From the sequence record NC_073075: DNA of 44,776 nucleotides. One strand, written 5' to 3'. A program made the translations under genes and the position numbers. Origin of the DNA: Escherichia phage ZCEC10. Of this stretch, positions 235-44,776 are shown piece by piece (positions within the stretch are counted from its first letter, which is position 1; every line of letters starts with the position of its first letter). The notes under the pieces were generated by a model. The model worked only from the letters and a program-made list of their open reading frames with translations. It did no database searches and was not told where the DNA came from.

Positions 235-564
235 ATGAATGTAAACGACGCAATCGAAATGTTAACGAAGACTGTTTGCAGTGAGACAAGCCGGTCATGG
301 GCTTATACCGATGCCGTGGGTGCGGTGTTATTTGAAATCGAGCGCCTGCGCAGTGTCGAAAAAGAATTGCGCGCCCGGCTGGAATTACTCAACGGTACGG
401 CAGCAAGCAAGCTGCAAAAACACAATGAAGAAATGGAAGAATACAAAAAGCAGGTTATCCGTTTGCGCGCCGAGGGTAAATCGTGGGCGATGATTGCCGA
501 GTTGACCGGAATTAATCAGAGCACAGTGCGCTCTTGGGTACGCAATAATAAAACTTCTAAGTAA
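235..564 (+). CDS. Helix-turn-helix DNA-binding protein, putative transcriptional regulator
   Basis: 109-aa ORF; C-terminal GKSWAMIAELTGINQSTVRSWVRN is a classic HTH; GAGGG RBS upstream. Confidence 0.6.
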   Translation: MNVNDAIEMLTKTVCSETSRSWAYTDAVGAVLFEIERLRSVEKELRARLELLNGTAASKLQKHNEEMEEYKKQVIRLRAEGKSWAMIAELTGINQSTVRSWVRNNKTSK

Positions 565-574
565 GGCCACGGCA

Positions 575-2839
575 ATGAGCTTAATTAAATTCGCTGTAAC
601 ACGACCCGCTAAAAAAGGCGAAAAAGCCAGGGCGGAAAACTTCCAGATGACTACCGAAGAGTTTTTCGAATTTATCAATGATGCGAAAGAAATATCCTCG
701 GTGCATATCAATAAGACGGAAGATAAAGCCGAGTATGCGCGCCGCAAGCGTAAGGCCGATGGCATCGTGGCGTATACCAGTGACGGATTGCGTCGTAAGA
801 CCAGTGCGGTGGACCGCTCGATCCTGTTCTTTGATATTGACCGCACCGACACCCGCACCCTACGCCGCTGCCGTAAGGCGTTCATCGACGCGGGACTGGA
901 GCACGTATTTCACACCACAACCGGCGACCGCCACCCGCTGAAAGGCGGCACGCGTTGCGCCCGTTTCCTGGTGCTCACGGACAAGCCTGTACCGGCTGAA
1001 GACCTGGGCCGCGTCCAGTATGCACTATTACACCAACTGGGTCTGTCAGATGTGGACTTCGACGACTGTACAAAAGACACAAACCGCCTTATGTACCTGC
1101 CACATCAGCAGTCTGTCGTTAAGTGCCACTACGGCAAACGCGCCAGCGTCCGTCGTCTGCTCCGTCGGGCGGATAAGCTGGGGGTGGAAAAAGAGGAAGT
1201 ACGCCGCGAACTAACCCAGGGCGATGACGGCGTGGCGGACGGCATTCTGGACTGGTGCTTCCAGGCAGGATTCGAGGAGTTATCTTCCGGTCGCGGTTAT
1301 GAAGTGCCGTGCCCGAACGAACATCTGCACAGCGGCGAAGGGTCGACGGCTATCATGGTCAAGGATGGCGAGACCCGTTTCAAGTGTATGCACACCGGCA
1401 ACGAGTGTTGCTCGGAACTGAACAGACACCAGCACCTGGCGCTGCGTCTTATCGGGATCCCGGACCACCTGAACGTCGAGCCACACAATATGTCACGCAA
1501 GCAAATCGCCGCCATCCTTCCGGGACTGGACGACGAGGAAGTGGAATCCTGCTATGAACATATCGTTGATGCAGTTGGCGACGGCGAAGAATACGGCGTG
1601 TGCACCGATGCCGACCTGGACAACGAGCCGGTTGCGCTGTTCAGTAAGCACGACCCGATCATCGAGGGGTTGATTAACTTTAAATCGACCTGGTACATGG
1701 CTGGCGAATCGAACATCGGTAAATCGTTCTACGTGCTGGGGCAGATGGGTGCGGTTGCCGCGGGTATTCCGTTTGGCGGTGCGAAGGTCGTCCAGTCTCA
1801 TTGCTTCTATTTCGACGCGGAAGGTGGCGAAGCCTCCAACCAGCGTAAGGAAGCATTGCAAATTAAATATGAGCACGACCTGGACAAGCTGCACATTATC
1901 GATCTGCAATCACGCGGCTGGGATATCACCAGCAAGTCCGGCTTGCGCGAAGTTATCAGCTTCATCAACCGCACCGCTAACGGCGAACCGGTTGGCCTGG
2001 TGGCGTTCGACTCACTCAACCAGACGGTTGCGTTGCGGTCCGCCGATGCCAAACCGTTCGACGAGAACAACGCCAGCGATATGGGCGAAGTGGTCAAGGC
2101 ACTGAAGGCCATCGCGGAAAACACAGGCGGCAGTGCGGGCGTCATCCACCACCCGGCGAAGGGTGCAAACGGAAGCAGATCCCCCCGCGGGTCCGGCGCG
2201 CTGCATGGCGCTGTCGATTCTGCGTTCTTCCTGGAACAGCCGGACGACAACCAGCCGGGACAACTTAACCTGTATCACGAAAAGGCACGTAACGGCATCA
2301 AGCAAGCGCCGCGCGGCTTCGTCCTGCTCAAGTGCAAGGTTAAGGTGGATCTCCGCAAGTCCGAGGCGTTCGAAGCCCACCAGTCCACCAGCACCGGGCC
2401 GGACTTCGGTGATGTGGTCGCCGGTTGGGACGTCAAGCCGATTGCCTCCACGCCTCGCGACGAGACTCTGTACCTCGTACCGGTCGCCCTGGCACCGTTC
2501 GCCATCGAACAGGCGAAGGCCGCGGGCAAGGCAGCAGTTAAGGAAGAGAACGCCGCGGGACCGCGCAACGAAAAAGAGAAAGTGCTCTATGCGGCACTGG
2601 AAAAACTGATGGAAGATAACCCGGACCATACCGGATTCAGTAAATCGGCAATTGTCCGCCAGGCTGGACTGGCGAAAGGTGGTACATCGACGAAGGCAAT
2701 TGACGATATGATCGAGCGCGGCGTACTCGGTTTTTATACAGACCCACACACCGGGGCCATCTATGGGTCGTCGAATATCGTCATAAAAACGAATATACCA
2801 ATCACGCTTTCTGCGACCGATGATGATTTGAAAGATTAA
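575..2839 (+). CDS. Bifunctional primase-polymerase / P-loop replicative helicase
   Basis: 754 aa; N-terminal FFDIDRTD prim-pol-like motif, Cys/His zinc-binding cluster (CPNEHLHSG...CMHTGNEC), Walker A GESNIGKS and Walker B-like VAFDSL. Confidence 0.8.
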   Translation: MSLIKFAVTRPAKKGEKARAENFQMTTEEFFEFINDAKEISSVHINKTEDKAEYARRKRKADGIVAYTSDGLRRKTSAVDRSILFFDIDRTDTRTLRRCRKAFIDAGLEHVFHTTTGDRHPLKGGTRCARFLVLTDKPVPAEDLGRVQYALLHQLGLSDVDFDDCTKDTNRLMYLPHQQSVVKCHYGKRASVRRLLRRADKLGVEKEEVRRELTQGDDGVADGILDWCFQAGFEELSSGRGYEVPCPNEHLHSGEGSTAIMVKDGETRFKCMHTGNECCSELNRHQHLALRLIGIPDHLNVEPHNMSRKQIAAILPGLDDEEVESCYEHIVDAVGDGEEYGVCTDADLDNEPVALFSKHDPIIEGLINFKSTWYMAGESNIGKSFYVLGQMGAVAAGIPFGGAKVVQSHCFYFDAEGGEASNQRKEALQIKYEHDLDKLHIIDLQSRGWDITSKSGLREVISFINRTANGEPVGLVAFDSLNQTVALRSADAKPFDENNASDMGEVVKALKAIAENTGGSAGVIHHPAKGANGSRSPRGSGALHGAVDSAFFLEQPDDNQPGQLNLYHEKARNGIKQAPRGFVLLKCKVKVDLRKSEAFEAHQSTSTGPDFGDVVAGWDVKPIASTPRDETLYLVPVALAPFAIEQAKAAGKAAVKEENAAGPRNEKEKVLYAALEKLMEDNPDHTGFSKSAIVRQAGLAKGGTSTKAIDDMIERGVLGFYTDPHTGAIYGSSNIVIKTNIPITLSATDDDLKD

Positions 2840-2933
2840 ATTTTGCGCGCATTGGTTGCCATTTTGGGTGTTTTTATCCGGTCGTATTGGTTGCCGTGTA
2901 GTGTAAATATAGTGAATAGTTATGCAATAAAAC

Positions 2934-3110
2934 TGCATAAAGTAAGCGGGACAGAAAGCGGGACAAACAAGGGGCGGGACAAAGCGGGACAGCACCCCCG
3001 TCCCGCCCCGGATGGCGCGGCCTGGCGAGGAGCGGGACAGCGGGACAGCACCCCAGTCTTTCAGACTAGACGGGGGGTCAATGGCCCCCCTCGTCTGAGA
3101 CTGCATAAAA
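2934..3110. repeat. Iteron-rich GC repeat R1 (six GCGGGACA(A/G) units plus long imperfect hairpin), paralogous to 20084..20253
   Basis: About 90 percent identical by eye to the second copy; both begin TGCATAAAGTAAGCGGGACAG and end in the hairpin cagactagacgggggg...cccccctcgtctgagactg. Confidence 0.8.
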
Positions 3111-3263
3111 TCCGGGGATTGCAAAATACACGGCAGCAGGATGCGAATCGCGGTCGTGGGCGAACTAGGCAACCAATGCGATATGTATTATGTGGAGTGA
3201 AAAACGCAGTTTGCAGCCACAGCAGATAGCGATCAACTTTTTCATGCGCGTGATTAATATTGG

Positions 3264-3292
3264 TTGCACTTGACCCGGCACCTTGCTATATT
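3264..3292 (+). promoter_or_regulatory. Sigma70-like promoter (TTGCAC-17-TATATT) flanked by two ATTGGTTGCAC motif copies
   Basis: -35 TTGCAC 3264..3269, 17-nt spacer, -10 TATATT 3287..3292; downstream gene starts at 3320. Confidence 0.5.
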
Positions 3293-3319
3293 GGTTGCAC
3301 ACCAACAGGAGGGCAGAAC

Positions 3320-3499
3320 ATGAAAACCGAAATGGTTAATAAGCGCGAAATCAAGATCGGCGATACGGTAGTCCACAACGGGGAGCTTCGCACTGTGTGC
3401 AAGCGGGCGTTTAGCATAGATGAATTTATGGGCCTGCTACTTTGGGGCGACAGCTATCGTTTAGGGCATAAACTGGTTGAGAGGGTTACGGAACTATGA
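3320..3499 (+). CDS. Hypothetical protein (59 aa)
   Basis: ATG preceded by AGGAGGG RBS; stop overlaps next gene start (ATGA). Confidence 0.45.
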   Translation: MKTEMVNKREIKIGDTVVHNGELRTVCKRAFSIDEFMGLLLWGDSYRLGHKLVERVTEL

Positions 3500-3801
3500 A
3501 AGCACTAATCTGGAATTACACAATGGCCGTGGCAAAGCTGGACGAAGCGAAGGCACTCAACGGCAACGTAGATCAGGCGCTTCAGGTTGCGATAATGGCA
3601 CATCAATCAATCCGGAGCGCGCTTTATGGTATGGACGCCAGCCTGGACGAACTGAAGCCGTTGCGTATGGCAATCCACGAATACGCGATGGCATTCTCCC
3701 GTGAGCGCCTGGCCTATCGCTTCGGTATTGGCGATAAGGCAGTGACAAACGTCGCCCGGATTAAAGCCCAGCGCGAACTATTCGCCCAGCTTGCGAAATA
3801 A
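3496..3801 (+). CDS. Hypothetical protein
   Basis: 101-aa ORF, translationally coupled to upstream gene. Confidence 0.55.
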   Translation: MKALIWNYTMAVAKLDEAKALNGNVDQALQVAIMAHQSIRSALYGMDASLDELKPLRMAIHEYAMAFSRERLAYRFGIGDKAVTNVARIKAQRELFAQLAK

Positions 3802-19187: not shown

Positions 19188-19217
19188 TTTGGTCGCTTAA
19201 ATAGCGAGTGATAATAT

Positions 19218-19244
19218 GGGGCCAGCACGGCCCCTTTTTTTTTT
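19218..19244 (+). terminator. Rho-independent terminator after major tail gene
   Basis: Stem ggggcc/ggcccc followed by T10. Confidence 0.75.
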
Positions 19245-19260
19245 ATTGGAGAATATTACA

Positions 19261-19623
19261 ATGGCTAAAGCACCACTCTTCACACTTGACCCTAAGCCAA
19301 CCTTTAAGCTGCCGATTGAGATTCCGCGCCCTGGTGAGAACGAACCCGGCAAGATGACGTTTACCGTCCGTCACCGCCCGATCGACGAATTTTCGCAAAC
19401 CATGCAGGACACCGAACGGAAGTTGTCGGAATATGACGACAATGACCCGGACGGATTTAACGTTATGGTCGAGGCCATCATGCACGTCGCTGAAGGCTGG
19501 AATCTGCCGGACGAATTTAACGCAGAGAACGTCCGCCGCCTGGTGGTCAACTACCCACGCGCGTTCGGTGTGTTCCACACGTCGTACTATCTCGAGCTGA
19601 TGGGGTTGCGTGAAAAAAACTAA
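19261..19623 (+). CDS. Tail assembly chaperone (G-like)
   Basis: 120 aa between major tail and tape measure genes; ends at slippery AAAAAAC. Confidence 0.7.
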   Translation: MAKAPLFTLDPKPTFKLPIEIPRPGENEPGKMTFTVRHRPIDEFSQTMQDTERKLSEYDDNDPDGFNVMVEAIMHVAEGWNLPDEFNAENVRRLVVNYPRAFGVFHTSYYLELMGLREKN

Positions 19624-19937
19624 TTGAGGCGGCGCGACGCTTTTATGGCCCGCCGCCACCCTCCGAAGATTTAGCCGCAAGTTTATGGGGAGCGGCCCCC
19701 GAAGATGTTTGTCCGCCTGTTGCGCTATGGCCCGACAACGCGAAGGTAGTCGCAGTCTTCACAGATTGCTCCACGCAATGGCGCACCGGATTTGGTGGCG
19801 CATACGGCATCGACTACGGCGTGCTGGCGTGGTTATTTAAGATGCACGGTATCGAAAACGAGCAGCGAGCGTTTAAAGATATCAAGCTAATGGAACGAAT
19901 CGCGCTTGATGAGATGGCGCAGCAGAACCCCGCATAA
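19261..19937 (+). CDS. Tail assembly chaperone GT-like fusion made by programmed -1 frameshift at 19614..19620
   Basis: Slippery heptamer A_AAA_AAC immediately before the G stop; the -1 frame is open for 105 more codons to TAA at 19935..19937 with no ATG start of its own. Confidence 0.6.
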
Positions 19938-19943
19938 TGAAGC

Positions 19944-19973
19944 GGGACAAAGCGGGACGTCCCGCTTTGTCCC
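19944..19973. repeat. Perfect 30-bp palindrome GGGACAAAGCGGGAC|GTCCCGCTTTGTCCC
   Basis: Arms are exact reverse complements with no loop; built from the same GCGGGACA unit as the iteron repeats. Confidence 0.8.
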
Positions 19974-20083
19974 TACCTGTAAAACCGCATATCTAATCAC
20001 TATTATTGCATAAACTCAAAGCGGGACAGGCGGGGCGTCCCGTTTTGTCCCACCCCGAAATGTGCATACCTATTCGAATTTCG

Positions 20084-20253
20084 TGCATAAAGTAAGCGGG
20101 ACAGAAAGCGGGACAGCCAAGGGGCGGGACAAAGCGGGACAGCACCCCGTCCCCGCCAGTGCTGCCGCGGGTTTTAGCCGATCGGGACAGCGGGACAGCA
20201 CCCCAGTCTTTCAGACTAGACGGGGGGTCAACGGCCCCCCTCGTCTGAGACTG
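20084..20253. repeat. Iteron-rich GC repeat R2, paralogous to 2934..3110
   Basis: Same unit order and terminal hairpin as R1. Confidence 0.8.
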
Positions 20254-20320
20254 AATAAGGATTGTTTTAAAATCGCTGATACAATGTCAATCGGCAACTG
20301 CATAAAAAGGGGACTGCATA

Positions 20321-22963
20321 ATGGCAGATCAAGCGGCAGGCATCACGCTGAAGGCTGATGTTGCACAAATCAGAACGGCAAATACTGTGCTGGACTCCTT
20401 CGCACAGAAATCCGAGAACACAGAAAACAAGGTTAAGAAATTAAACGACACCCTCGGCAAATCCAAAAAGGTTACTGGCGACGCCGCGGGCGGAATGGAG
20501 AAGCTGGCGACTGAATCGCAGCGCGCCGCCGATGGCATGACGAAACAAGAGCGACTTGCCAACAGGTTAGGCATGTCGACCAAAAACCTGGGCTTTGCCT
20601 CGCGTAACGCCGCATTCCAGTTACAGGATATCGCAGTTACGCTTGAGATGGGGATGCCGGTACACCGCGTTATGCTTCAGCAGCTACCACAGCTAACCGG
20701 CGCATTTGGCGGACTGGGTAACACGCTGCGTTATGTTGCAGGCTTCCTCGGCCCAGTAGGGATCGGACTTGCTGCCGTAACGGCGACGTTAGGCGTGGGC
20801 GTGGCAATTACGTCACGGGCAGAGAACCAGGTAGCCGCGCTTAATAAGACGCTGGCGCTGTCCGGTAATATCTCCGGCCTCACAGCTAACCAGATCCTGG
20901 TGCTGTCCGAGAACGCTGAGCGCATGGGCGGGTCATTTCGCAAGACGCGTGACACAATCCAGGCGCTGGCGGCGGCGGGTGTGAAAGCGGGTGGTGACTT
21001 CGGCGCATTGGCTAAGGTAGTTAATGACTTTGCGAAGGTGTCCAGCCAGCCGATCGAGGATGTGGTAGCGGCGGTGGCGAAGCTGTCAACCGACCCCGTT
21101 GGCGGACTGCGTGCGCTGGCGGATAAGTATCACGTCGTAAACGAAGCGCAGATCCAGCAGGTACAGTCGCTCGTTGATGCGGGTCGTGAGACAGACGCAG
21201 TTGCGTTGGCTAACAAAACAGCCGCTGCGTCGTTCACCAGCATGACCAATGAGATCAAGGCGAACATGGGTACGCTTGAGCGGTCGATGAACGTCGTCAC
21301 ATCGGCAGCCAAATCGATGTGGGACGCTATCCTGGATGTGGGTCGCGCGCAGTCCTCCAATGAATCCGAGATGAAAGCGCGCGAATCACTGCAGCGGCTG
21401 ACCACGGCTTACTATGCCGAGATGAAAGCGGTAAACGCTGCCGGTGGGGTAATGACTGAAGCGCAGAAAGCACGTATTAACATGCTTTACAGCGAACTGG
21501 TCGCCCAGGAAAAAGTGGTGGCGTCGCTCACCCTGCGTAACCGTGCTGAGCGAGACAACGCCCGCGCCGCAGACGAATCCGCAAAGGCGAACGAGGAGGC
21601 CAACCGCACTGCCCGTGACCGCGCCGCGTTCGAGAAGGAATACGCCACCAACGCTAAGAAGCGCGCCGACGAGATCGCCCGCCTCAATTTGCTGAATAAG
21701 CGCGGCGTTATTGATGAGAAAGAACTAGCCGAGGCGGTGAAGCAGGTTAACAAGCGCTACAAAGACCCGGCACCGAAGAAGGCTGCGGCTGTTCGCGTGG
21801 ATGCTGGTATGAAAATGCTGGAAGTCGCACGGAGCGAACTGGCCCAGCTTCGAGAATCCGGCAAGCAGATCGAAGCCAACGCATCGACGCAGACCCGCAC
21901 GCAACGCGCTCAAGCGGCCTTAAACAAGCTGATCGCGGATAATGAGCAGTTAATCGCCGCAAGCAAAGAAAGGGCGCTAACGGCAGCCGAAAAGCAGCAG
22001 ATGGTCGAATTCGGACGCGTGAAGGAAGTGCGCGAGCAGATCGTCGAAGAAGCCAAATTGCTGGACGCGAAAGAGAAGCAGGTCAAGGCGCACGCGCAGA
22101 TCGATGCCTTCGTTAAGAACCAGAACGCCGAACTAAAAGCCACCGCCGCGGGTTATGCGCTTTCCACTCGCGAAGCGGCAAACCTGCGTGAAGAATTGCA
22201 GCTAATTGACCGCTTGAAGCGGGTTGGCGCTAACGATACCGATATTGACAAGGCGGTGTCTAAGCTGCGCGAAGTGCAGGAGGCACAGACCGGCGCTAAC
22301 GCCTCGCTATGGGATGGCTTCAGCCGCGGGCTTAAGGATAGCGTGGATGATATGGGTAACGGATATACGCAGATGGCGTCGCTCACAAAATTCACGTTCA
22401 GCGCTATGCAAGACACGATGAACGAGTTTTTCGAGACGGGCAAGCTGAACGCAAAGGATATGGTTAAGTCCATCCTTAGCGAATTAATAAAGCTGGCTAC
22501 CTCGCAGGCATTCAAGTCCATCGTTAGCGCTTTCGGCGGTGACGGCGGCAAAAACGGATTGTTCGGCGCTATCTTCTCTGGCCTCACTAAGAATGCGGAC
22601 GGCGGAGCGTACGCAGGAGGCAATCTCGCGGCCTATTCGGGGAAAGTGGTAAGCCAGCCTACCTTTTTCAGTTATGGCGTCCAGGCGTTCGCTAAGGGCG
22701 CCGGGTTGATGGGTGAGGCCGGACCTGAGGCCATCATGCCGCTGAAGCGCGGGCCAGACGGTAAACTTGGCGTTGCCGCGTCGGGCGCAGGCGGTGGTAT
22801 GGTCGTGACGACTAACGTTTACACGGGGGCCGGTAAAACAGATACCAGTGTCAGTGGGCCAGACCCACGTACCGCGCAGGCGTTCGGGAAGCAAATCACC
22901 GAGGCGGTCAAGGCCGAGATCGTGAAGGCGACGAAACCGGGTGGTGTACTTTACAAACGATGA
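20321..22963 (+). CDS. Tail tape measure protein
   Basis: 880 aa, Ala/Glu/Lys-rich coiled coil, Gly-rich C-terminus, located after the chaperone pair. Confidence 0.85.
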   Translation: MADQAAGITLKADVAQIRTANTVLDSFAQKSENTENKVKKLNDTLGKSKKVTGDAAGGMEKLATESQRAADGMTKQERLANRLGMSTKNLGFASRNAAFQLQDIAVTLEMGMPVHRVMLQQLPQLTGAFGGLGNTLRYVAGFLGPVGIGLAAVTATLGVGVAITSRAENQVAALNKTLALSGNISGLTANQILVLSENAERMGGSFRKTRDTIQALAAAGVKAGGDFGALAKVVNDFAKVSSQPIEDVVAAVAKLSTDPVGGLRALADKYHVVNEAQIQQVQSLVDAGRETDAVALANKTAAASFTSMTNEIKANMGTLERSMNVVTSAAKSMWDAILDVGRAQSSNESEMKARESLQRLTTAYYAEMKAVNAAGGVMTEAQKARINMLYSELVAQEKVVASLTLRNRAERDNARAADESAKANEEANRTARDRAAFEKEYATNAKKRADEIARLNLLNKRGVIDEKELAEAVKQVNKRYKDPAPKKAAAVRVDAGMKMLEVARSELAQLRESGKQIEANASTQTRTQRAQAALNKLIADNEQLIAASKERALTAAEKQQMVEFGRVKEVREQIVEEAKLLDAKEKQVKAHAQIDAFVKNQNAELKATAAGYALSTREAANLREELQLIDRLKRVGANDTDIDKAVSKLREVQEAQTGANASLWDGFSRGLKDSVDDMGNGYTQMASLTKFTFSAMQDTMNEFFETGKLNAKDMVKSILSELIKLATSQAFKSIVSAFGGDGGKNGLFGAIFSGLTKNADGGAYAGGNLAAYSGKVVSQPTFFSYGVQAFAKGAGLMGEAGPEAIMPLKRGPDGKLGVAASGAGGGMVVTTNVYTGAGKTDTSVSGPDPRTAQAFGKQITEAVKAEIVKATKPGGVLYKR

Positions 22964-23598: not shown

Positions 23599-24383
23599 AT
23601 AAACTATATCGCGAGGCGACGCGCTTTGACCCATCGGGACGCGTTCGCCTGATTCACATTGACGCGCAGGACGTGGAGCCGGGCGACGGCGCGATCGGCG
23701 CGGGTCATCACTATTTTCACTATTGCTTTATCCCGCACACTGCCGAAGATATTGCCGCTGCGGGTGGCGACGAGGACAAGCTAAAACCTAAATCCATCTT
23801 CTTCGGCGGGCAGGAGTTCGAATTCTGGCCCTTCGATCTGTCCGGCCTTAACTTCTCCACATCAACGGCAGCAGAACCGCAGCTAACAATCGTCGATATT
23901 GGCGGCATAATAACCCGGCTGTCGCTGAATCACGACCAGCTACTGGGCGCGAAGGTTGAGATCATTGATACGTTCGCGAAGTTCCTTGATAACGGGTCGG
24001 ATCCAGACCCGACGCAAAAACGTGTCCAGGAGTATTACATCGACTCACAGGTTGGTCGCAATCCTGGCAAGCAAATCACCTTCGCATTATCCTCACCCGC
24101 GGATATGGAGGGGCAAGTAGTTCCCCGCCGCCAAATCATGAATATGTGCGAATGGGCGTTAAATGGGAAGTACGCCAGCGGGGACGGGTGTACCTGGAAC
24201 CTTGCGAAGCCAGGTATCAAGTATTACGACGAGCGGGGTAATGAAGTCATCGCGATGAACATGGACCGATGCGGCGGCTGTTTGTCCGACTGTTATCTTA
24301 GATTTGGGCAAGGGCTTGCGGACCCTAAAGCGGCGGTGCTGGACTTCGGCGGTTTTCCGGGGTCCAGATTAATTAAGGGGTAG
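23595..24383 (+). CDS. Minor tail protein (lambda L-like)
   Basis: 262 aa; conserved Cys/His cluster (HYFHYCF...CGGCLSDC). Confidence 0.75.
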   Translation: MNKLYREATRFDPSGRVRLIHIDAQDVEPGDGAIGAGHHYFHYCFIPHTAEDIAAAGGDEDKLKPKSIFFGGQEFEFWPFDLSGLNFSTSTAAEPQLTIVDIGGIITRLSLNHDQLLGAKVEIIDTFAKFLDNGSDPDPTQKRVQEYYIDSQVGRNPGKQITFALSSPADMEGQVVPRRQIMNMCEWALNGKYASGDGCTWNLAKPGIKYYDERGNEVIAMNMDRCGGCLSDCYLRFGQGLADPKAAVLDFGGFPGSRLIKG

Positions 24384-30401: not shown

Positions 30402-30482
30402 GGTATCATCTCCTATATTTGGTTGAGTTTTAGTATTGCACCTCTCAATCAAGAATGCAACCAATTTTATGAGGATTCAGCT

Positions 30483-44699: not shown

Positions 44700-44776
44700 G
44701 CGTCCTGCATCCTGTCGACGGGGGGAATAATAGATTGGTTGCAGGATGGGTGTCAACAACTAATTTCAAAAAAAAA
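44700..44776. repeat. Terminal direct repeat, right copy
   Basis: Exact match to 1..77. Confidence 0.85.
44727..44756 (-). promoter_or_regulatory. Sigma70-like early leftward promoter (TTGACA-18-TATTAT, minus strand) inside the terminal repeat
   Basis: Minus-strand -35 TTGACA at 44751..44756, -10 TATTAT at 44727..44732, spacer containing TGCAACCAAT; identical copy at 28..58. Confidence 0.45.

Follow-up and report, generated by a model that had tools for sequence, protein, structure and literature searches.

GGGAC iteron arrays in the tail operon and beside the primase-helicase gene of Escherichia phage ZCEC10 as a candidate two-site replicator

Introduction

Iteron-type replicators are a well known kind of system. 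In satellite phage P4, the alpha protein combines a primase, a helicase and a C-terminal winged-helix DNA-binding domain in one polypeptide, and it uses two sites of short direct and inverted iterons, ori and crr, which are located several kilobases apart. The core origin of simian virus 40 (SV40) and the polyomaviruses carries four pentanucleotides in its site II, where large T antigen is bound and two hexameric helicases are loaded head to head. The oriV of RSF1010 and the IncQ plasmids combines iterons, GC-rich and AT-rich segments and the hairpins ssiA and ssiB, which are served by the RepA helicase, the RepB′ primase and RepC, while in the origins of Staphylococcus aureus pathogenicity islands (SaPIs) and phage-inducible chromosomal islands (PICIs) the iterons flank an AT-rich region immediately 3′ of the pri-rep genes. 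Here we describe a gap in the tail operon of Escherichia phage ZCEC10 (sequence record NC_073075; the complete genome of 44,776 nt is referred to as the window), in which the pentamer GGGAC is repeated in direct and inverted orientation, and a second copy of this array directly 3′ of the gene for a primase-helicase. The tail-operon locus is referred to as region A and the primase-helicase locus as region B, and all coordinates are positions in the window. Our confidence is evenly poised on the reading that the gap forms half of an iteron-type replicator with two sites, namely an origin next to the gene for the initiator and a further site within the tail operon.

The likeness to P4 lies in a primase-helicase with a predicted C-terminal winged helix and in short direct and inverted iterons at two separated sites. 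However, the alpha helicase belongs to another superfamily, whereas the phage protein has a RepA/DnaB-like AAA_25 core; the unit is TGTTCACC in P4 and GGGAC here; and the two sites of the phage are 17 kb apart, one of them inside the tail operon. In addition, the primase-helicase gave no sequence match to P4 alpha, and no P4 alpha domain was present among the fold matches listed. By analogy, the proposed replicator of the phage may work like that of P4, but we do not count it as a member of the P4 system. With site II of SV40 the phage shares four pentamers arranged as two inverted pairs, a perfect palindrome of ~27–30 bp and an AT-rich flank. Here the analogy ends, as the protein families are unrelated, the pentamers are spaced by 10 bp and not by 6 as in SV40, the palindrome arms are unequal in most relatives of the phage, and the phage has extra direct iteron arrays. 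The likeness to RSF1010 consists of a RepA-like helicase core and of iterons followed by GC-rich DNA and then by a hairpin with a conserved stem, a candidate single-strand initiation signal; in contrast to RSF1010, the phage has a single fused protein for primase and helicase and lacks a separate RepC-like gene, and each locus has one hairpin, both on the same strand. As in the SaPI and PICI origins, the array is located directly 3′ of the initiator-helicase gene, and lineage-specific iterons are matched to the initiator, but those islands have a single origin and other proteins, whereas the phage is a virulent siphovirus with a second copy in its tail operon. All four comparisons are analogies, not memberships.

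In the record of Sodalis phage SO-1 (NC_013600), the same two loci are entered as repeat_region features named ‘region A’ and ‘region B’, with a note on direct, inverted and palindromic repeats and on similarity with region B. This is annotation only, and no paper discussing or analysing the SO-1 regions A and B or these repeats was found in the literature searched. Judged from sequence comparison, what appears to be new is that the repeats accompany the primase-helicase gene across genera, that the repeat unit switches in step at both loci, and that the long palindrome is not conserved. In the literature searched we also found no replication origin described for these virulent coliphages, a common group to which many therapy candidates and some phages of the BASEL collection belong. 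If the replicator reading is true, the origin would be narrowed to two loci of ~200 bp each and its likely initiator would be named. The lineage-specific pentamers would then be naturally occurring variants with which site recognition by a winged helix can be mapped, and could potentially be used to build orthogonal phage-derived replicons.

GGGAC arrays at two loci of the genome

The gap between the tail assembly chaperone genes (G/GT) and the tape measure gene extends from position 19938 to 20320 and measures 383 bp. Counted on either strand, the pentamer GGGAC occurs 15 times within this gap, as compared to 0.38 occurrences expected from the rest of the genome, with one of the 15 (20310) being the Shine-Dalgarno region of the tape measure gene. 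Likewise, positions 2840–3320 (481 bp) contained 7 copies where 0.48 were expected. The longer unit GCGGGAC was found 23 times in the genome against 9.4 expected, a count reached in none of 100 shuffles, and 16 of these 23 copies fall in regions A and B. Every GGGAC array of the genome is confined to these two regions, and no such arrays were present in its other intergenic and promoter regions.

Region A opens with palindrome 1 (19944–19973; GGGACAAAGCGGGAC|GTCCCGCTTTGTCCC), which consists of four GGGAC units in two inverted pairs (GGGAC-N5-GGGAC|GTCCC-N5-GTCCC). It is followed by a first AT-rich spacer (19974–20018; 69% A+T), with TGCATAA at 20007–20013, and by the imperfect palindrome 2 (~20023–20051), which is composed of GGGAC at 20023–20027, a degenerate GCGGGGC, and GTCCC at 20037–20041 and 20047–20051. 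In several relatives, palindrome 2 is replaced by one forward and two reverse units. The second AT-rich spacer (20053–20095; 60% A+T) contains TGTGCATACCTAT and TGCATAAAGT and corresponds to the GTGAATAGTTATGCA...TGCATAAAGT element that precedes the iterons of region B. The iteron block on the plus strand (20096–20197) then comprises four direct units of the form (A/G)CGGGACA, with GGGAC at 20098, 20110, 20126 and 20136, one inverted unit (20149–20153), a GC-rich spacer and two further direct units at 20184 and 20192. It is succeeded by a long conserved hairpin (20204–20253, plus strand), in which 21 bp (5+6+2+8 pairs) are interrupted by three small bulges and closed by a loop of 3 nt.

A module of ~170 bp, comprising the iterons and the 21-bp hairpin, is duplicated between the two loci (20084–20253 and 2934–3103). 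Both copies have the same order, with an AT-rich lead-in ending in TGCATAAAGT, the iterons and the hairpin, and differ in the GC-rich spacer. Region B (2905–3103, plus strand) is situated directly 3′ of the stop codon of the primase-helicase gene (2837–2839). Its positions 2905–2944 are the most AT-rich 40-mer of the genome, which abuts the iterons and carries the inverted repeat TTATGCA-N7-TGCATAA; positions 2948–3046 represent the same 4+1+2 iteron block, and positions 3054–3103 the same hairpin. In region A, the segments 19980–20019 and 20252–20291 rank among the top eight AT-rich 40-mers of the genome. An AT-rich segment adjoining the iterons is thus present, but this is weak evidence, intergenic DNA being AT-rich in general.

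An earlier inspection of the letters alone (the sequence-only reading) had described a gap of about 380 bp without a plausible open reading frame (ORF), a perfect 30-bp palindrome, a second imperfect palindrome of the same unit, an iteron repeat termed R2 and a density of symmetric GCGGGAC sites. Our analysis confirmed the gap and both palindromes, palindrome 1 being perfect over all its 30 bp. R2 proved to be real, with 88.6% identity between 20084–20258 and 2934–3108, and the density of GCGGGAC is borne out by the shuffling result. The statement on ORFs holds in substance: mechanical ORFs do exist in the gap (e.g. 20062–20358; 98 aa, GTG start), and relatives show 1-nt frame-breaking indels throughout the region.

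The two loci also share smaller features. Elements based on TGCA lie in AT-rich DNA just 5′ of the iterons at 2912–2940, at 20060–20091 and in a Cornellvirus (L007, 13663–13696). They include the identical 13-mer GTGAATAGTTATGCA of region B in this genome, which recurs in region A of HK578 and in the Cornellvirus, as well as the inverted repeat TTATGCA-N7-TGCATAA and TGCATAyCTATGCAG. Phage HK578 has GTGAATAGTTATGCAG at the position of the second spacer, and the same 13-mer occurs twice before the Cornellvirus iterons. All five genome copies of TGCATAAA lie in regions A and B. The last two iterons (20184–20203 and 3034–3053) exist in two forms, AGCGGGACAGCACCCC with a spacing of 8 bp and AGGCGGGACAAAGCCC with a spacing of 9 bp, and in most genomes the form is the same in regions A and B, including the trailing bases. 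These matching forms suggest gene conversion between the two regions, or their co-selection.

Conservation of the arrays within Dhillonvirus

The window belongs to the genus Dhillonvirus, the HK578/SO-1-like virulent siphoviruses. The gap is present in all ~157 Dhillonvirus records, and both loci were found in all those checked. Alignments of the gap from 16 genomes and of the module from 32 copies showed that the pentamers are invariant, as are the core CGGGAC|GTCCCG and the hairpin stems, whereas variation is seen in the sequence and length of the linkers, in the hairpin loop and in the AT-rich spacers. Among 23 distinct copies of the hairpin, the stems were invariant and the loops variable, and no compensatory change was observed within the genus.

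Palindrome 1 is perfect over 30 bp in ZCEC11 and jat and over 34 bp in SO-1, but over only 12 bp in 11 of the 16 genomes, and it is disrupted (0 bp) in 2 of the 16. The long palindrome is lost in most genomes because the left linker usually has 4 nt and the right linker 5 nt, so that only the 12-bp core is self-complementary in most relatives. Since the pentamers are conserved while the long palindrome is not, selection acts on the units and not on the complementarity of the arms. This comparison argues that protein-binding sites are what is conserved, and speaks against a cruciform or a stem in an RNA. When the 32 module copies were folded jointly with RNAalifold, only the terminal hairpin was returned, with a covariation term of 0 and 0 of 32 pairs compensatory, and a structured RNA was therefore rejected for the iteron part.

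The sequence-only reading had offered a binding platform for a dimeric protein, a cruciform or an RNA element as the possible nature of the gap. A platform of symmetric sites for a DNA-binding protein is supported by the sequence comparison, with invariant pentamers, varying linkers and, as detailed below, switches of the unit that are matched at both loci. A cruciform or RNA palindrome did not stand up as a conserved feature, given the unequal arms in most relatives and the lack of covariation in the iteron part. The comparison of the same junction in related phages, which that reading had recommended, recovered the pentamers and the 12-bp core but not the long perfect palindrome.

In the record of one BASEL phage (JohannBuxtorf_Bas84; L136, PQ850611.1, 230–250), a run of 12 C replaces the last ~17 T codons and the whole of palindrome 1. 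Either the palindrome caused an error in sequencing or assembly, or a natural deletion has removed palindrome 1 from a viable phage.

Related arrays in other lineages

Beyond the genus, a metagenomic lineage (L130/L133) with a primase-helicase of 69% and a tape measure protein of 60% identity retains GGGAC, the palindromes and the hairpin at both loci. In contig SRR26384698_5047 (tape measure 51%, primase-helicase 46% identical), both gaps are kept and the unit is GGGAT, with 7 copies in 236 bp against 0.36 expected and 6 copies in 645 bp against 0.98 expected. Edwardsiella phage eiAU-183 (Eiauvirus) has the same two gaps, which have a 52-nt block with CGCCCC-type repeats in common, and the hairpin in its tail gap has the same inner stem and a different outer stem. 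In the Cornellvirus (primase-helicase 43% identical), a scan of 5-mer density detected six GGGGAG units, four of which read GGGGGAG, with the first of them 7 nt after the stop codon of the primase-helicase gene. This cluster lies under an annotated ORF and is preceded by two copies of GTGAATAGTTATG, the 13-mer that also precedes the region-B iterons of the window. No second iteron cluster was found elsewhere in this phage, including its G/T-tape measure junction.

Iterons are thus located directly 3′ of the primase-helicase gene in Dhillonvirus and the L130 lineage (both GGGAC), in the SRR26384698 contig (GGGAT), in eiAU (CGCCCC-type) and in Cornellvirus (GGGGGAG). On the level of sequence, this distribution shows that the primase-helicase locus is the general one and that the tail-operon locus is a second copy in some lineages. 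It also shows that the unit differs between lineages and yet matches between both loci of one genome. Since the module is also found 3′ of the primase-helicase gene, and since the Cornellvirus has iterons only there, the array follows the replication gene and not the tail genes. For the same reasons, the suggestion that the gap is placed so as to control expression of the tape measure and tail tip genes received no specific support.

The ORF over the Cornellvirus iterons is cecavS44_021 of Salmonella phage vB_CECAV_044 (L007, PQ220373.1, 13654–13962), which covers the GGGGAG units 3′ of the primase-helicase gene. Although annotated as ‘hypothetical protein’, it is probably not a gene.

Candidate iteron-binding proteins

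The primase-helicase (575–2839, plus strand; 754 aa) is the first candidate for binding the iterons. Its RepA/DnaB-like AAA_25 core spans residues 357–531, and its C-terminus contains a predicted winged helix at residues ~666–737 (nt ~2570–2785), made up of its last ~75 structured residues and modelled with a predicted local distance difference test (pLDDT) score of ~80, and an acidic tail, ATDDDLKD. The putative recognition helix of this winged helix differs between lineages. The sole match of the protein by sequence in the PDB was RSF1010 RepA, and this match was very weak (E = 0.43); a C-terminal fragment of 219 aa gave no match in a large protein database. The alternative candidate is a small helix-turn-helix (HTH) protein of 109 aa (235–564, plus strand; HTH_23 / sigma-70 region 4-like), which is encoded just upstream of the primase-helicase. 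It is 82% identical in the L130 lineage, where the GGGAC iterons also persist; in eiAU and other lineages with a different unit, an unrelated HTH_3 protein takes its place. The HTH protein and the winged helix both change whenever the iteron unit changes, so that co-variation favours neither of the two candidates. We favour the predicted winged helix as the likely iteron binder because the primase-helicase gene is the constant neighbour of the iterons in all lineages.

A possible two-site replicator

An initiator-like neighbour, lineage-specific units, an AT-rich flank and the restriction to two loci together make up the signature of an iteron origin next to its initiator gene, a design shared by SaPIs and many plasmids. 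In such a replicator, a phage-encoded sequence-specific protein would bind the pentamers, most likely through the winged helix of the primase-helicase or, alternatively, in the form of the small HTH protein. The 2+2 inverted pentamers could position two helicase rings head to head, as GAGGC does for SV40 large T antigen, and the AT-rich DNA flanking the iterons would melt. The conserved hairpin might then form on the displaced strand, where it would signal priming or loading in the manner of the RSF1010 ssi sites. The ancestral origin would be region B, beside the initiator gene, and region A would be a second origin or a cis-acting enhancer, like the crr of P4.

Several observations weigh against an origin at these loci. 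The cumulative GC skew has no inflection at 3 kb or 20 kb. It rises to ~32 kb and then falls, following gene orientation, and because it does so the skew is uninformative on the origin. Sites resembling DnaA boxes (TGTGNAWAA, at most 1 mismatch) are not enriched, with 59 found and 56.8 expected, and TGTGCATAC and CGTGCATAA were dropped as DnaA boxes for this reason. The eiAU repeats are weakly enriched (P ~0.002–0.04, for a motif chosen after looking). Both modules are oriented with transcription, each ending in a hairpin that is followed by a promoter-like sequence, which would fit a transcriptional role as well. Furthermore, replication and transcription would share the same DNA if an origin lay within the late operon, and the literature searched gave nothing on these repeats.

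A more specific version of the replicator reading is put forward tentatively, as a possibility that we would not expect to hold in full. In this version, the replicator is bipartite: a self-loading primase-helicase would read GGGAC via its winged helix, assemble head to head on the SV40-like 2+2 pentamer palindromes of the tail operon and communicate with the second site beside its own gene, and its pentamer specificity would have been swapped between lineages (GGGAC, GGGAT, GGGGGAG, CGCCCC). If true, natural orthogonal pairs of origin and initiator would exist in E. coli phages, and replication initiation would be embedded in, and possibly coupled to, late gene transcription.

Putative transcription signals in the gap

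The main rival to the replicator is a transcription boundary with an array of regulator sites, which we consider rather unlikely as the explanation of the arrays; boundary and origin functions are compatible and may coexist. According to this rival, the hairpin is cut by RNase III, protects the 3′ end of an RNA or terminates transcription in part, separating the abundant messages for head, tail tube and chaperone from the low-copy messages for tape measure and tail tip. Transcription would then resume from an extended −10 promoter at a time set by a phage regulator, for instance the HTH protein, with the GGGAC units as its operators, and behind the primase-helicase gene the same device would divide early genes from later ones. 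If so, the two loci define the early/late and the high-copy/low-copy transcription boundaries of these phages.

Several observations agree with this proposal. Both modules point in the direction of transcription and stand at plausible class boundaries of a long rightward operon. The 21-bp hairpin is conserved and stable, with a predicted RNA folding energy of −29.8 kcal/mol (z = −3.6) in region A and −30.4 kcal/mol (z = −5.1) in region B, and eiAU and other lineages have an analogous hairpin of a G run and a C run with different outer stems. Downstream of it, the promoter-like element TGATACAAT (20277–20285, plus strand), an extended −10 motif TGnTAnnnT, is located 36 nt before the tape measure ATG, and in the alignment of 16 genomes the stretch GCTGATACAAT before this gene does not vary. 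The element was found by eye, as a two-hexamer promoter scan did not pick it up. The Shine-Dalgarno sequence AAGGGGA follows at 20307–20313, and the ATG at 20321. From the sequence, the 3′ end of the gap would thus hold the tape measure gene's own putative extended −10 promoter, as an element separate from the iterons. Palindrome 1 has been labelled a terminator by the annotators of HK578, and other records annotate terminators in region A too. In addition, the HTH protein covaries with the iteron type. In LM40P1 (L137, OZ035746.1, 225–255) and Ioannina (L008), a canonical terminator-like hairpin, GGCCGGGTAATTCCGGCCTTTTT plus T5, spans the T stop codon; it is separate from palindrome 1 and immediately precedes it.

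However, on the coding strand no U tract follows either palindrome 1 (which is followed by TACCTGTAAAA) or the hairpin at 20204–20253 (followed by AATAAGGATTG), and in region A a terminator scan gave candidates on the minus strand only. An intrinsic (rho-independent) terminator was therefore rejected for hairpins that have no U tract after them on the transcribed strand. The other promoter regions are without GGGAC arrays and are marked instead by TTGGTTGC, a motif described below. The iterons lie 85–190 bp upstream of the promoter with the hairpin in between, and 14–15 sites far exceed what operators typically need. In the Cornellvirus, moreover, the iterons are found beside the primase-helicase gene and nowhere at the junction with the tape measure gene. 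A boundary is insufficient as an account of the arrays because it leaves unexplained the 14–15 pentamers, their absence from other promoters and their placement in the Cornellvirus. The gap is probably a transcription boundary as well. Transcription control at this site, as envisaged in the sequence-only reading, is thus upheld in part: the conserved extended −10 element TGATACAAT and the hairpin before the tape measure gene speak for it, whereas the array itself follows the primase-helicase.

Other explanations of the arrays

Some other site for DNA transactions is improbable, whether it serves packaging (pac) or genome ends, recombination (as a hot spot), condensation or a partition-like process. 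A model for the partition-like variant is provided by the linear plasmid-prophage N15, which has dispersed inverted repeats bound by SopB, some of them in late genes, and the two loci of the window are likewise dispersed clusters of inverted and direct repeats. A genome-end element would fit the linear record of eiAU-183 (L129, NC_023555), which starts just upstream of its region-A repeats, and three Dhillonvirus records that start or stop inside region A (LR990702.1, MZ234029.1 and OX460974.1). However, these record ends differ (~20148, 20226 and 20249), and they are better explained as assembler breaks; we conclude that linear record ends in region A are probably breaks of this kind at the repeat or the palindromes. 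Headful terminases of the P22/Sf6-like type have pac in or near terS. The terminase of the phage is of this type by Pfam, and both loci are 5–10 kb away from the terminase genes. Furthermore, the annotation shows no ParA/ParB-like or recombinase gene, and partition would be of no obvious use to virulent phages.

It is very doubtful that the module encodes a transcribed non-coding RNA of ~160 nt, reaching from TGCATAAAGT to the hairpin, in which the GGGACA repeats titrate an RNA-binding protein, like a sponge of the CsrB/RsmZ type, or act in cis as an antitermination RNA like put of HK022. Such an RNA would be consistent with two sense-oriented copies that each have a strong terminal hairpin, and with the GGA within the repeats. 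A search of the whole genome against Rfam gave 0 matches at the gathering level and only sub-threshold matches to microRNAs and antisense RNAs, which were in region A, with none in region B. These sub-threshold matches are due to chance, and a known structured RNA family was rejected since no match reached the gathering level. Besides the terminal hairpin, which has no U tract, the module showed neither covariation nor conserved structure, and no sigma-70 promoter was found at its 5′ end. CGGGACA fits the CsrA consensus poorly, and the presence of units in both orientations is meaningless for an RNA motif but natural for DNA sites.

Finally, a selfish or neutral repeat without phage function, be it an element like a miniature inverted-repeat transposable element (MITE) or a relic duplication flanked by TGCATAAA, is highly improbable: TGCATAAA or TGAATAAG bounds the module on both sides and copies A and B show signs of gene conversion within genomes, but the module has exactly two copies, whose syntenic positions are constant across ~157 genomes and further genera, its pentamers are under strong purifying selection, it lacks terminal inverted repeats, and neither the plasmids of PLSDB nor 5,426 complete E. 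coli genomes contained a copy.

Genome context and minor observations

A single long rightward transcription unit extends from ~235 to 32,315 and encodes, in this order, the small HTH protein, the primase-helicase, small genes, lysis, terminase, head and tail proteins, the tape measure protein, the tail tip and the fibres; the remaining replication genes are on the opposite strand. The left border of the gap is formed by the tail assembly chaperone G and its −1 frameshift extension T (19216–19937, plus strand), of which G (19216–19623) matches Pfam Phage_TAC_4. Translation of the −1 frame gave a DUF1799-like T frame without stops up to the TAA at 19935–19937, and the slippery run GAAAAAAA for the G/T frameshift is visible in the sequence. 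The same two chaperone genes are annotated in SO-1 and HK578. At the right border, the tape measure ORF with its matches to TMP_2 and Tape_meas_lam_C starts at 20321.

The record of Escherichia phage ZCEC11 (OK310512.1) is 100% identical to the window and circularly permuted by ~3,560 nt. Two tiny ORFs are annotated in its gap (record positions 23722–23808 and 23805–23918), and it also carries many overlapping ORFs annotated on the opposite strand. The repeats explain recurrent calls of small spurious ORFs, as well as assembly breaks, at both loci. Nucleotides 1–77 of the window are exactly repeated at 44700–44776; this is the wrap-around of a circular or permuted assembly, and the ZCEC11 record has one copy (3561–3637). 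Small opposite-strand ORFs are found between the T gene and the array in two other lineages, namely two in the lineage with 60% identity (L133, 1353–2101) and one in eiAU-183 (gp54; L129, 42367–42720), and the junction upstream of the array evidently tolerates insertions.

A further motif, TTGGTTGC(A), is dispersed over the genome in 19 copies, as compared to 1.9 expected. The first ten are at 36, 2852, 2887, 3169, 3260, 3291, 3999, 14325, 14338 and 24993, and the others at 30457, 33571, 33583, 35245, 35262, 38219, 41840, 41856 and 44735. They are often paired at a distance of 12–31 bp or arranged as the palindrome TGCAACCAA-N4-TTGGTTGCA. The motif overlaps promoter-like sequence, for example TATATTGGTTGCA at 3287–3299 just before the gene at 3321. 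It is retained in eiAU-183 (21 copies), while other lineages have the related GCTGCCAAC, GCGGCCAAC and TTGCGAGT instead. TTGGTTGC probably serves the phage as part of promoters or operators and differs from the GGGAC iterons.

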